A stretch of 64,000 bases of DNA from a virus, in IMG/VR virus record IMGVR_UViG_3300020204_000053; one strand, 5' to 3'. Under the pieces are notes generated by a model. It made no database searches and was not told the DNA's origin. It saw only the letters and a program-made list of their open reading frames with translations. How positions within the stretch are numbered: the stretch's first letter is position 1; every line of letters starts with the position of its first letter. A program made the translations under genes and the position numbers. This document shows, in pieces, positions 27,445 to 28,267 of the stretch.

Positions 27445-27846
27445 TCATAATTTACCCTCGTCTCTCATTTCTTGTCGAATCTTACTCGCAGATATATCTC
27501 CAACCTCTTGAGGGGGTATATGTTCAATAATGTCATAACCAACACCACGACCGAAATTTACAGATTCTATGTCAGGTATAATTACAACTTTTACTTTTTC
27601 ATCACCAACAAGTTTCCAAAGTTCTTTTTTTATGTTTGCCTCAACCTCTAAAGCACTGAATGGATTTTTTTCGTCAGGTTCGATGTCTCTAATACAAATA
27701 AGAATATTCTTACCCTCGTTTAACCTTTGATCAATTAACCACCTGTGACCTGAATGCCACGGCTGCCAACGACCAATAAACATGGAATATTGTTTAGAAC
27801 CACTATTTTTCAGTTTTGGGTCACCCTCAACGTGTATTTTCCGCAT
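27445..27846 (-). CDS. Nicotinamide-nucleotide adenylyltransferase-like (archaeal NadM-type, HxGH nucleotidyltransferase)
   Basis: FIGRWQPWHSGH (cf. GRFQPFHKGH), KNPFSALEV, ISASKIRQEMRDEG (cf. ISGTEIRRRM). Confidence 0.7.
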   Translation of the reverse strand: MRKIHVEGDPKLKNSGSKQYSMFIGRWQPWHSGHRWLIDQRLNEGKNILICIRDIEPDEKNPFSALEVEANIKKELWKLVGDEKVKVVIIPDIESVNFGRGVGYDIIEHIPPQEVGDISASKIRQEMRDEGKL

Positions 27847-28267
27847 ATTTTAATACTTTTGACACTGATTCTTCAACATCCTCCTCAGTAGTATCAACAC
27901 TCAGAAAGTTCTCAGTTGGGGGTTCATAATTTTCAACAAAAAAATCCTCTCTTCCTCTCAGTTCATTTGTGTGAATGTAAATCTCGACTAAATTAGTCCC
28001 CATTTTTTGTTTAAACTTGTCTCTTTGGTCTTTGTAAGGGGACACTAATGATACCACAACATCTCTTTTTTTATTATGAAGGTATTCAGAAATTTGTTGT
28101 GCTAATTCAATATTTTTTCTTCTCCCTGTTTCAGAATAATCTTTATTTTCGAATAAATTTCTCAAGTCATCCCCATCGATATGGAAGAAACTTGGTTTTT
28201 CCCAAATTATCCTTTCACAAATGGTTGTTTTACCAGACCCTGGTTGTCCTGTAAACCAAATAATCAT
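27827..28267 (-). CDS. cysC: Adenylylsulfate (APS) kinase
   Basis: IWFTGQPGSGKTT (P-loop) ... HIDGDDLRNLF.NKDYSETGRRKNIELAQQISEYL...DVVVSLVSPYKDQRDKF matches APS kinase consensus LDGDnvR..L..dLgFs..dR.eNirR....SPy...R. Confidence 0.75.
   Translation of the reverse strand: MIIWFTGQPGSGKTTICERIIWEKPSFFHIDGDDLRNLFENKDYSETGRRKNIELAQQISEYLHNKKRDVVVSLVSPYKDQRDKFKQKMGTNLVEIYIHTNELRGREDFFVENYEPPTENFLSVDTTEEDVEESVSKVLKYAENTR

Follow-up and report, generated by a model that had tools for sequence, protein, structure and literature searches.

A phage APS kinase and an overlapping NMNAT-like nucleotidyltransferase as a putative PAPS source for sulfotransferase-fold proteins

We analysed a 64,000-nucleotide stretch of viral DNA (IMG/VR record IMGVR_UViG_3300020204_000053; the window) and found that a gene of the APS kinase family overlaps a gene for a small NMNAT-like HxGH nucleotidyltransferase (NT), and that the same genome encodes two sulfotransferase-fold paralogs (ST1 and ST2). 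On balance, we favor the view that this phage carries a self-contained sulfation pathway in which NT would make APS, the kinase would convert APS to PAPS, and ST1 and ST2 would use PAPS on some acceptor. Two enzyme types, Sat and CysDN, are generally taken to account for sulfate activation. A broader proposal, which we advance tentatively and which we judge to fall a little short of an even chance, is that NT (113-133 aa) is an ATP sulfurylase of a third kind, not recognised before, that replaces Sat or CysDN in phages and abundant aquatic microbes. Together with the lid-less kinase it would then form the smallest known PAPS synthase, and many viral 'cysC' genes would serve phage-run sulfation and not sulfur assimilation.

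A short, lid-less protein of the APS kinase family

An earlier note on this DNA had singled out three open reading frames, a kinase and two sulfotransferase-like proteins; all three lie exactly where it placed them (Table 1), and every motif that it quoted is present in the translations. For the kinase these motifs include GQPGSGKTT, DGDDLR, SETGRRKNI and SPYKDQR. Its placement in the APS kinase family was borne out by profile and structure searches: the protein matched Pfam APS_kinase (PF01583) at E 1.8e-15 (57.7 bits; gathering cut-off 21.1), and the best 21 matches in a PDB search were APS kinases or PAPS synthases only (E 3e-10 and weaker). Scores were under all NCBIfam subfamily cut-offs, including that of the TIGR00455 equivalog (65.9 vs 138.7). 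A search at E<=1e-5 gave 6421 homologs; the best 120 range from 144 to 154 aa and share 74% identity or more with the kinase, and this is therefore a conserved gene and no chance ORF. Close homologs carry the JGI label 'adenylylsulfate kinase'.

Table 1 Features of the window discussed in the text
Feature	Positions	Strand	Length	Basis or remarks
ST1, sulfotransferase-fold protein; putative PAPS-dependent sulfotransferase	9310..9960	(-)	216 aa	
ST2, sulfotransferase-fold paralog of ST1	18887..19573	(+)	228 aa	PRTASR, invariant His and RNPY shared with ST1
NT, NMNAT-like HxGH nucleotidyltransferase	27445..27846	(-)	133 aa	Motifs, NCBIfam NMNAT, kinase adjacency and fusions
Kinase, short lid-less APS-kinase-family protein	27827..28267	(-)	146 aa	Pfam APS_kinase, PDB matches, subfamily residues, CysD/CysN neighbours
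DUF3310 protein	28264..28584	(-)	106 aa	Pfam DUF3310 6.8e-15; first gene of the DUF3310-kinase-NT run

The alignment between the kinase and APS kinases covers residues 2-101 and 112-143 only. PDB alignments revealed that ~18 residues are absent at this junction, where residues 101-112 of the kinase correspond to chain residues 127-156 of 8a8h and residues 99-112 to residues 108-139 of 7yq0. The mobile lid between the core and the C-terminal helix is thus not present in the phage protein, and this shortened form is the norm across the kinase subfamily. The Walker A P-loop (GQPGSGKTT, residues 7-15) is intact, with G7, G12 and K13 invariant among 31 subfamily members. The APS-holding stretch (IDGDDLR...NKDYSETGRRKNI) fits the patterns DGDxxR and NxD[FY]SxxxRxxN, and conservation in the same 31 members reaches 90% or more at D31, G32, R36, N41, R49 and N52. 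Among these diverse short-form proteins, almost no variation is seen at the Arg of DGDxxR, the second Arg or the Asn; we take these three positions, mapped from fungal and human structures, to be the APS contacts. Homology and genomic context thus support an APS kinase, whose predicted reaction is transfer of a phosphate to the 3'-OH of APS, yielding PAPS. We rejected a nicotinamide-riboside kinase that would form a NadR-like pair with an NMNAT, because the window protein has no AAA_28 or PRK match, the phosphosulfate-binding arginines are kept, and close relatives have CysD/N partners.

NT resembles NMNATs and may act like an ATP sulfurylase

The NT gene, which the earlier note missed, starts 20 nt before the kinase stop, and the junction between the DUF3310 gene and the kinase is a 4-nt ATGA overlap with the kinase start. 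NT carries the motifs GRWQPWHSGH (of the HxxH nucleotidyl-transfer type) and ISASKIR; GRxQPxHxGH and ISxTxxR, as in NMNATs, are both found in NT and are invariant across the NT family. Archaeal or NadM-type NMN adenylyltransferases, which have both motifs in common with NT, are its best sequence matches, and every one of 18 NT family members matched Pfam CTP_transf_like. JGI labels the window protein NMNAT. In NCBIfam the NMNAT match reached 6.9e-9, far under cut-off (35.5 vs 127 bits for PRK01153; 33.6 vs 181 for TIGR01527). The nearest solved relatives are likewise NMNATs (E 1e-8), and the alignment to them spans only the N-terminal two thirds of NT (profile positions 7-83 of 118).

Several features set NT apart from NadM-type enzymes. 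In addition to scoring below the family cut-offs, NT falls 30-50 aa short of the length of NMNATs and begins to diverge exactly where NMNATs continue past the DIE strand; its core is ~113 aa, and cellular forms have 112-135 aa. Where NMNATs differ, the NT family has an invariant, family-specific SVNYGRxVGY...PP segment. An AlphaFold model, built from an alignment of sequences at least 81% identical, had a pLDDT of 50.8.

Comparison with Sat-type ATP sulfurylase (PF01747) gave no match to the window NT. Weak matches were found in 5 of 18 NT relatives (E 0.0059-0.17), and in the three of these that we inspected singly the match was confined to the HxGH region (profile positions 29-76). The family has an invariant YGRxVGY in place of the GRDHAG of Sat, and the PUA-like N-terminal domain of Sat (~390 aa in all) is not found in the far smaller NT. 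From its size and these profile misses we conclude that NT is therefore no member of the Sat family, and we claim only that it may work like Sat. The lack of specific similarity to ATP sulfurylase counts against a sulfurylase role. We infer from its genomic partners that NT carries out the sulfate adenylyltransferase step (ATP + sulfate -> APS): its constant partner is an APS kinase, and it was never found with NAD genes in the loci examined.

Kinase and NT are strictly linked and repeatedly fused

Kinase and NT are adjacent in 84 of 84 related phage loci, all of which also have DUF3310 upstream of the kinase; DUF3310 is absent from the unrelated phage L096, which has only three genes in common with the window. 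With 24 cellular loci, the adjacency extends to 108 loci. The two proteins are also fused, with the kinase N-terminal and NT C-terminal, in P0174, P0190 and P0256, in Salvo gp32, in DLP_6 AAY80_227 and in L200. We rejected frameshift artefacts as the source of these fusions, since cultured phages with finished genomes have them too, and so do at least 80 viral contigs, whose linkers differ. A gene for DUF2061, a small membrane protein, follows the fusion in 40 of 80 phage loci.

Both activation steps are likewise united in one operon or polypeptide in metazoan PAPSS1/2 and in the bacterial Sat-CysC and CysN-CysC fusions. PAPSS has its kinase domain N-terminal and its adenylyl-transfer domain C-terminal, the same order as in the phage and Verrucomicrobiota kinase-NT fusions, and its kinase domain is homologous to the phage kinase, which is without the ~18 lid residues. 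The second domain is what differs from PAPSS, Sat and CysDN: here it is a 113-133-aa NMNAT-like protein, not a ~390-aa Sat with a PUA-like domain and not the CysD/CysN GTPase system.

This linkage bears on whether the genes act together at all. They could instead be unrelated auxiliary genes, the kinase being a 'cysC' that boosts host assimilatory sulfate reduction and NT an NMN adenylyltransferase for NAD+ salvage or against NAD+ depletion, with ST1 and ST2 drawing on host PAPS independently. Viral cysC has been read as such a booster (10.1101/2021.01.05.425418; PMC10914622), the closest solved and curated relatives of NT, like its JGI name, are NMNATs, and a NUDIX gene is present in the window. 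However, repeated fusion into one polypeptide would be hard to explain for unrelated functions, as would strict adjacency in 108 loci and co-location with four sulfotransferase families (below). Moreover, Pfam listings covering ~60 kb of the window contain no NAMPT, NAPRTase or other NAD gene, those of the window contain no cysH or sulfite reductase, and the short NT departs from NMNATs after the DIE strand. We thus consider separate functions unlikely, if still worth serious consideration, and retain a joint role in PAPS formation as our working interpretation.

In cellular genomes NT takes the place of CysD/CysN beside the kinase

Among 78 cellular kinase loci, NT was beside the kinase in 24, CysD and/or CysN (CysD/N) in 40 and both in none (CysD/N in 0/24 NT loci vs 40/54 others; Fisher p=1.2e-10), an exclusivity that concerns the genes beside the kinase and rests on few lineages, Bacteroidota being set against Marinimicrobia, marine group II/III archaea and others. 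In the 40 CysD/N loci the kinase is located just upstream of CysD (PAPS_reduct 1.1e-44) and CysN (GTP_EFTU 1.7e-43). The kinases themselves are similar in the two contexts: CysD/CysN-partnered members of the subfamily are 45-57% identical to the phage kinase, and median identity is 51% between NT and CysD/N contexts vs 53% among NT-linked kinases. In 22 Flavobacteriales loci, DUF2061 lies between the kinase and CysD. The microbes to which an NT-type sulfurylase would apply are Marinimicrobia, marine group II/III archaea, and some Verrucomicrobiota and Patescibacteria.

Other members of the kinase subfamily (L154 and P0171) are fused to a HAD phosphatase, so fusion partners other than a sulfurylase are possible. 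NT might by the same token act outside PAPS formation, for instance in a regulatory role or in recovering the by-product PAP, with the phage relying on host APS. Yet the HAD-fused kinases keep CysD/N alongside, whereas the NT-linked kinases never do, and we know of no reaction in which a nucleotidyltransferase recycles PAP. We therefore regard a role for NT outside PAPS formation as very improbable and keep to its placement at the APS-forming step.

ST1 and ST2 form a divergent sulfotransferase-fold family

The earlier note had described the two sulfotransferase-like proteins as paralogs, which they are: ST1 and ST2 are 25% identical (E 4e-13). Their 5'-phosphosulfate-loop motifs are PERTATR in ST1 (LPERTATR) and PRTASR in ST2 (QPRTASR), and both have Arg at the position of the catalytic Lys in the PKxG(T/S)(T/S) loop; a canonical PPKTGSR loop is kept in two other family members (P0153 and P0154). 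The second shared motif is RNPYTRMKSYYY in ST1 and RNPYSYFSNGF in ST2. ST1 has the 3'-phosphate motif R-x7-S, with R76 and S84 in VRNPYTRMKSYYY, a segment that resembles the SULT1 motif RN.KD..VSYYHF. In the family alignment RNPY is invariant and the 3'-phosphate Ser is at least 90% conserved; ST2 has Asn at this position and a Ser one residue earlier.

Profile searches gave a divided answer on the sulfotransferase assignment. ST1 and ST2 themselves matched no Pfam sulfotransferase model at E<=1, and an NCBIfam scan returned nothing useful, but 10 of 21 homologs matched Sulfotransfer_1 (best 6.7e-7) and 10 of 21 matched Sulfotransfer_2 (best 1.4e-6). A profile of the family found SULT4A1 (0.002) and SULT1C2 (0.0085) in the PDB. 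The predicted fold of the paralogs is that of sulfotransferases: Foldseek against the PDB gave weak E-values (0.09 or worse), and in a BFVD fold search the best 16 matches had the fold of annotated viral sulfotransferases. Annotated viral proteins with the ST1/ST2 fold occur in the Ralstonia phage phiRSL1, the Synechococcus phages S-SKS1, S-SRM01 and ACG-2014f, Roseobacter phage SIO1 (gp5.1) and giant viruses. Like the window, phiRSL1 has an annotated APS kinase as well; no NT of the window's family was found near that kinase in the 10 kb examined. ST1 and ST2 belong to a separate, very divergent sulfotransferase-fold family. A tblastn search with ST1 against 50,697 GenBank phage records found no match, and a near-identity DNA search with 20 kb of the window against GenBank phages returned only a 97-base, chance-level match; the phage of this window is without a sequenced close relative.

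The paralogs might not be sulfotransferases at all, and might instead be degenerate P-loop-kinase-like proteins or non-catalytic binders unrelated to the kinase. The missing Pfam matches of ST1 and ST2, the weak Foldseek values, the Lys-to-Arg change in the 5'-phosphosulfate loop and the missing Ser of ST2 are what such proteins would lead one to expect. The homologs, family profile, predicted fold, motifs and gene context instead support a putative sulfotransferase role, and we give little credence to a non-catalytic or kinase-like identity.

Sulfotransferase genes adjoin the kinase-NT pair in some loci

In the window, the ST genes sit 9 and 18 kb from the kinase. In related phages the linkage is closer: upstream sequence sufficed in 52 of the related loci, and in 17 of these a same-family ST gene lies directly upstream of DUF3310-kinase-NT. 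In L096, an ST-family gene is followed immediately by a kinase-NT fusion. ST relatives in other phages form tandem arrays of 2-4. A sulfotransferase was found within 8 kb in 20 of the 80 phage fusion loci, abutting the fusion in 7, and in the other 60 there was none within that distance. The cultured fusion phages (Salvo, Sano, DLP_6 and others) had no match to either of the two sulfotransferase families searched.

In all, the kinase-NT pair adjoins four different sulfotransferase families, and these include members of Sulfotransfer_1, _3 and _5 above Pfam cut-offs. In cells, Sulfotransfer_5 lies beside kinase-NT in 12 of 24 NT loci vs 1 of 54 others (p=7e-7), and Sulfotransfer_3 and Sulfotransfer_1 also occur near it. 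A private PAPS unit beside a sulfotransferase is found in Marinimicrobia, Patescibacteria and Verrucomicrobiota loci. The PAPS-dependent sulfation module proposed in the earlier note thus gains support from the profiles of the ST family and from the linkage in 17 of 52 related loci and in L096; what that proposal lacked was the overlapping NT gene, which is probably part of the pathway.

These neighbours also bear on the identity of the donor. NT could adenylylate a different anion or phospho-compound, the kinase could 3'-phosphorylate the product, and the ST-fold proteins could transfer that group. Adenylylation followed by 3'-phosphorylation is a logic common to several pathways, as in CoA synthesis (PPAT and dephospho-CoA kinase) and the Campylobacter CDP-amidate pathway; the second substrate of NT cannot be read from its sequence, and Arg replaces the catalytic Lys in ST1 and ST2. 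Against another donor, the kinase retains the phosphosulfate-holding residues of APS kinases, its close relatives partner with CysD/N, and the pair adjoins bona fide members of Sulfotransfer_1, _3 and _5. A dephospho-CoA kinase and PPAT pair was specifically rejected, with no Pfam CoaE match for the kinase and E values of only 0.1 for pantetheine-phosphate adenylyltransferase (CoaD) models on NT. We hold a donor other than PAPS to be quite unlikely, and PAPS remains the donor in the pathway that we propose.

A proposed phage sulfation pathway

In the first step of this pathway, the HxGH/ISxTxxR site of NT would join sulfate to the alpha-phosphate of ATP, yielding APS and pyrophosphate, so that NT would amount to a minimal counterpart of ATP sulfurylase. 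Next, the translationally coupled short APS kinase would phosphorylate the 3'-OH of APS to form PAPS, a step predicted from homology and context. By using up APS it would draw the unfavourable first reaction onward, as happens in the fused animal PAPS synthases. Finally, as fold and motifs suggest, ST1 and ST2 would move sulfate from PAPS to an acceptor. One candidate acceptor is a glycan or a hydroxylated residue that the 2OG-oxygenase and glycosyltransferase genes nearby would supply, perhaps on the collagen-like fibres, which gene context weakly suggests as a target; a host polymer is an alternative candidate. Having both activation steps on the phage would give independence from hosts without sulfate activation. 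Counting against the pathway are the lid-less kinase, the Arg for the catalytic Lys in ST1 and ST2, and the Asn for Ser in ST2. So do the distance between the ST genes and the kinase in the window, the 60 fusion loci with no sulfotransferase within 8 kb, and the lack of matches in the cultured fusion phages.

Dedicated sulfation loci are known in bacteria, including Rhizobium NodP/NodQ with NodH, Xanthomonas RaxP/RaxQ with RaxST, and mycobacterial CysNC with Stf. In each, a private PAPS-synthesis unit with a CysD/CysN-type sulfurylase stands next to a sulfotransferase whose target is a glycolipid, peptide or polysaccharide. The Marinimicrobia, Patescibacteria and Verrucomicrobiota loci are arranged alike, but NT fills the sulfurylase slot. 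If this reading is true, a third, very small sulfate-activating enzyme would alter the way sulfur metabolism is deduced from genomes, sulfate activation may exist in organisms believed to be without it, and a compact two-gene or single-gene PAPS source would become available for biotechnology. Targets of phage sulfation might be virion glycans or fibres, the host envelope or small molecules. The cultured fusion carriers, Xylella phages Salvo and Sano and Stenotrophomonas phage DLP_6, make the reading directly testable.

Viral cysC genes have been reported as conserved auxiliary metabolic genes that are transcribed in situ in freshwater and marine metagenomes (Kieft et al. 2021, 10.1101/2021.01.05.425418; Chen & Banfield 2024, PMC10914622). 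They are credited with driving sulfur assimilation in lakes and oceans, an ecological reading that would be wrong if they feed phage sulfotransferases instead. Unlike the published viral cysC, the kinase described here has NT as its partner and is linked to sulfotransferases of phages. The word 'sulfotransferase' is absent from the text of the 2021 preprint (10.1101/2021.01.05.425418), and, according to a paper on OM43 phages, what phage sulfotransferases do 'remains unclear' (PMC10580990). Within the literature covered, our search found no paper on an NMNAT-like sulfurylase or on a link between viral cysC and sulfotransferases; viral cysC and viral sulfotransferases have each been reported, and their linkage and the NT partner were found in none of the papers covered. 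The earlier note had called PAPS-based sulfation rare in phages, which overstated the case: 62 cysC genes were reported in 7,334 genomes of freshwater phages (PMC10914622), sulfotransferases are annotated in several phages, and IMG/VR holds at least 537 kinase-NT-like stretches.

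A short predicted APS kinase gene overlaps a nucleotidyltransferase gene

The earlier note proposed that an APS kinase and two sulfotransferase-like paralogs (ST1 and ST2) form a PAPS-dependent sulfation module. All three ORFs are present exactly where it placed them and contain the motifs it quoted. The profile search it suggested matched the kinase ORF to Pfam APS_kinase, and each of the 21 best PDB matches of this ORF is an APS kinase or a PAPS synthase. The identical protein is encoded on 21 metagenome contigs, the longest of 72.8 kb. The predicted enzyme is not a standard CysC; it scores 65.9 bits against the TIGR00455 equivalog cut-off of 138.7. 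Its lid is missing: PDB alignments are interrupted at residues ~101-112, where the solved enzymes are longer by ~18 residues. When 1.84 billion representatives were searched exhaustively, 2463 matched the kinase at E ≤ 1e-3; among the best 150, almost every protein has 140-160 aa and aligns end to end, and lid shortening is the rule in a large kinase subfamily. Across 31 diverse short-kinase members, the P-loop, DGDxxR and N-x-D-[YF]-S-x-x-G-R-x-x-N are at least 90% conserved; in the fungal and human structures, residues at these positions bind the adenine and phosphosulfate of APS. We consider it highly likely that the protein is a true APS kinase with the predicted activity.

Short APS kinases also occur joined to a phosphatase domain of the HAD family (HAD_2, 1.2e-6), in L154 (10001-10801), in 21 similar Flavobacteriales loci and in the metagenome representatives P0171 and P0176; this domain may remove the by-product PAP. 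The 542-aa representative P0250 joins a short APS kinase to two large C-terminal domains which, judged by eye, resemble FkbM-type methyltransferases.

Features of the window and their profile matches
Feature	Position	Strand	Details
ST1	9310-9960	-	216 aa
Two prolyl/lysyl-hydroxylase-type 2OG-Fe(II) oxygenases and GT2	11074-13007, 15160-15756	-	1.8e-17 and 2.9e-11; GT2 1e-16
ST2	18887-19573	+	228 aa
Band_7	19568-20125	-	auxiliary-looking
NUDIX	21010-21429	+	auxiliary-looking
Cob_adeno_trans	22679-23218	-	auxiliary-looking
N6_N4_Mtase DNA methyltransferase	26545-27414	-	3.6e-36
NT	27445-27846	-	133 aa; start overlaps kinase stop by 20 nt
APS kinase	27827-28267	-	146 aa; Pfam APS_kinase E 1.8e-15, 57.7 bits (cut-off 21.1)
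Three consecutive collagen-like tail-fibre genes	35765-44620	-	928, 976 and 1048 aa
Glyco_transf_25, two GT_PLOD and class-I methyltransferase protein	48033-50795	-	920 aa; 1e-22 (Glyco_transf_25), 1.9e-69 (GT_PLOD)
MethyltransfD12 (Dam-type) DNA methyltransferase	52509-53348	-	
DnaJ with zinc finger	53616-54542	-	auxiliary-looking

The earlier note overlooked the gene that overlaps the kinase, which encodes a nucleotidyltransferase (NT) and is a probable additional member of the pathway. The kinase start in turn overlaps the stop of a DUF3310 gene (ATGA), and the order DUF3310-kinase-NT-DNA methylase is kept in 84 of 84 related phage loci, the N6_N4_Mtase gene always following kinase-NT in this phage lineage. 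In several places the two proteins form a single polypeptide whose N-terminal part is the kinase and whose C-terminal part is NT: in metagenome representatives P0174, P0190 and P0256, on a 1.09-Mb Verrucomicrobiota chromosome (L200) and in the cultured phages Salvo, Sano, Bacata, Seregon, AhaSv, Suzuki, BCU1, Bhz60 and DLP_6. IMG/VR holds at least 537 kinase-NT-like stretches, and the best 80 are all fused. Genes for 2OG oxygenases or Asp/Asn hydroxylases lie within 3.5 kb of the fusion in 11-13 of these 80 phage loci.

The NT motifs GRWQPWHSGH and ISASKIR are those of HxGH nucleotidyltransferases, and it is most closely related to NMN adenylyltransferases (NMNATs) of the archaeal and NadM types, with scores far under the family cut-offs. 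It has 7576 homologs; the 120 best share at least 81% identity and range from 132 to 147 aa, almost all of them having 133 aa. A profile built from 18 diverse NT members matched NMNAT structures at 1e-8 over the N-terminal two thirds only, and the invariant segment SVNYGRxVGY..E..PP has no counterpart in those structures. An ATP-sulfurylase model weakly matched five NT relatives; in the three checked individually the match covers only the shared HxGH region, and such matches discriminate nothing.

In some cellular loci NT occupies the gene position of ATP sulfurylase

The short-kinase alignment, used to scan a single genome for each species, yielded 80 cellular loci. They come from Marinimicrobia, marine group II/III archaea, Flavobacteriales, Verrucomicrobiota and others, and some of the contigs measure 0.4-1.1 Mb. 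Partners were counted where a kinase was called, in 78 loci. NT lies directly downstream in 24, and CysD (PAPS_reduct, 1.1e-44) and/or CysN (GTP_EFTU, 1.7e-43) lie downstream in 40; none of the 78 has both (Fisher p = 1.2e-10, counting loci from a handful of lineages). Kinases of the NT and CysD/CysN contexts resemble each other as closely (median identity 51%) as NT-linked kinases do among themselves (53%). In 22 Flavobacteriales loci the gene for DUF2061, a small membrane protein, separates the kinase gene from CysD, and in 40 of the best 80 phage loci it comes immediately behind the kinase-NT fusion (matches of 1.2e-22 and 1.2e-18; loci L223-L302, e.g., L277 8821-9030, and L154 10807-11034); the window has no copy. 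The partner pattern, the likeness of the kinases across contexts and the placement of DUF2061 show, for this handful of lineages, that ordinary sulfate-activation clusters use the short kinase as their APS kinase and that NT fills the slot held elsewhere by ATP sulfurylase.

In two marine group III archaeal contigs (L144 and L164), kinase-NT sits beside a Cys/Met PLP enzyme (Pfam, 2.4e-137) and neighbors whose N-terminal sequences resemble methionine synthase, AdoHcy hydrolase, SAM synthetase and serine hydroxymethyltransferase. No sulfotransferase was found near kinase-NT at either, which hints that the pair serves sulfur assimilation in these archaea.

ST1 and ST2 belong to a sulfotransferase-fold family

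ST1 and ST2 are indeed paralogs (25% identical, E 4e-13). Scanned alone against Pfam, neither matched a sulfotransferase model, but some of their relatives did. A profile search found 43 relatives, and among 21 aligned and scanned, 10 matched Sulfotransfer_1 (best 6.7e-7) and 10 Sulfotransfer_2 (best 1.4e-6). Against the PDB, 9 of 11 profile matches are sulfotransferases (SULT4A1, 0.002; SULT1C2, 0.0085). Among viral structure models, the 16 best fold matches carry the annotation sulfotransferase and come from phages and giant viruses. His H58, RNPY (76-79) and a C-terminal SW are invariant, and a Ser eight residues past the family's Arg is at least 90% conserved, the R-x7-S spacing by which PAPS sulfotransferases hold the 3'-phosphate. 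Near the N terminus, the loop reads P-[KR]-T-[AG]-[ST]-R, with the canonical PKTGS in some members; its Lys position is Arg in both window proteins, and ST2 has Asn in place of the conserved Ser. We conclude that ST1 and ST2 have the sulfotransferase fold, contain a plausible PAPS site and are putative enzymes; that they are PAPS-dependent transferases is quite probable.

Other phage genomes (L100, L102, L105, L135, L229 and others) carry two to four tandem paralogs of this family, often with a class-I methyltransferase-like ORF next to them and within replication neighborhoods (flap endonuclease, GTP cyclohydrolase I, clamp, DnaB).

Sulfotransferase genes adjoin kinase-NT in some loci

Among the 52 related phage loci whose upstream sequence extends for 1.5 kb or more, 17 have an ST1/ST2-family gene directly upstream of DUF3310-kinase-NT. 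In L096, a phage sharing only three genes with the window, an ST gene precedes a kinase-NT fusion by 23 nt. An ST-family or Sulfotransfer_3 gene occurs within 8 kb of the fusion in 20 of 80 phage fusion loci, abutting it in 7. In cellular loci, Sulfotransfer_5 (3e-51) accompanies 12 of 24 with NT versus 1 of 54 others (p = 7e-7), Sulfotransfer_3 adjoins kinase-NT in L186 and in one Patescibacteria locus that also holds glycosyltransferase genes, and Sulfotransfer_1 does so in the Verrucomicrobiota locus; these neighborhoods are often within polysaccharide clusters. That four unrelated sulfotransferase families adjoin the same pair argues that kinase-NT supplies PAPS.

Kinase homology, the fold and motifs of the ST family and this phage linkage support the proposed sulfation module, and we think it fairly likely that the kinase, ST1 and ST2 work together. 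Phage cysC genes are known and have been read as aids to assimilatory sulfate reduction (10.1101/2021.01.05.425418; PMC10914622), and the function of phage sulfotransferases has been called unclear (PMC10580990). Our literature search found no paper linking viral cysC with viral sulfotransferases, nor one on an NMNAT-like sulfate-activating enzyme. In Ralstonia phage phiRSL1, an APS kinase and a sulfotransferase-like protein are both annotated.

Proposed pathway and acceptor

In the pathway we propose, sulfate would attack the ATP alpha-phosphate in the HxGH site of NT, giving APS and PPi; the kinase, from its homology and context, would convert APS to PAPS; and ST1 and ST2, from fold and motifs, would move the sulfate to an acceptor. 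Sat-type sulfurylases belong to the same superfamily as HxGH nucleotidyltransferases and use the same chemistry. Because APS formation is very unfavorable, tight coupling of NT and kinase would be expected, and the overlapping genes and fusions fit this. Several observations count against the model. NT resembles NMNATs and not sulfurylases; 60 of the 80 phage fusion loci lack a sulfotransferase within 8 kb, and the cultured fusion-bearing phages gave no match to the two ST families searched; the window ST genes lie 9 and 18 kb from the kinase; ST1 and ST2 carry active-site substitutions; and the kinase is lidless. We regard the chances that NT performs the sulfate-activating step as evenly balanced.

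The window (35.6% G+C, ~93 ORFs) has no close relative among 50,697 GenBank phage records. Its three collagen-like tail-fibre genes, Amidase_2 gene and DUF3310 gene identify a tailed phage. Two of the fibre genes encode 254-255 unbroken G-X-Y triplets, with Y often Gln, Thr or Lys. The Glyco_transf_25/GT_PLOD gene, 3.4 kb from the fibres, has the domains found in animal collagen-glycosylating enzymes; together with both 2OG-FeII_Oxy_3 genes, it resembles a phage toolkit for collagen hydroxylation and glycosylation, comparable to mimivirus L230. ST1, which overlaps an ORF for a 676-aa protein without assigned function, ends a minus-strand run containing a 2OG oxygenase, GT2 and small ORFs. Given this run, the second 2OG oxygenase that it also encodes, a GT11-like gene and the Glyco_transf_25/GT_PLOD gene near the fibres, a hydroxylated or glycosylated fibre is a reasonable guess for the acceptor; we commit to no target because the ST family adjoins replication genes in other phages. 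Further auxiliary-looking genes in the window encode thioredoxin, glutaredoxin, Pterin_4a, Fe-S_biosyn, Flavodoxin_2 and 4HBT proteins.
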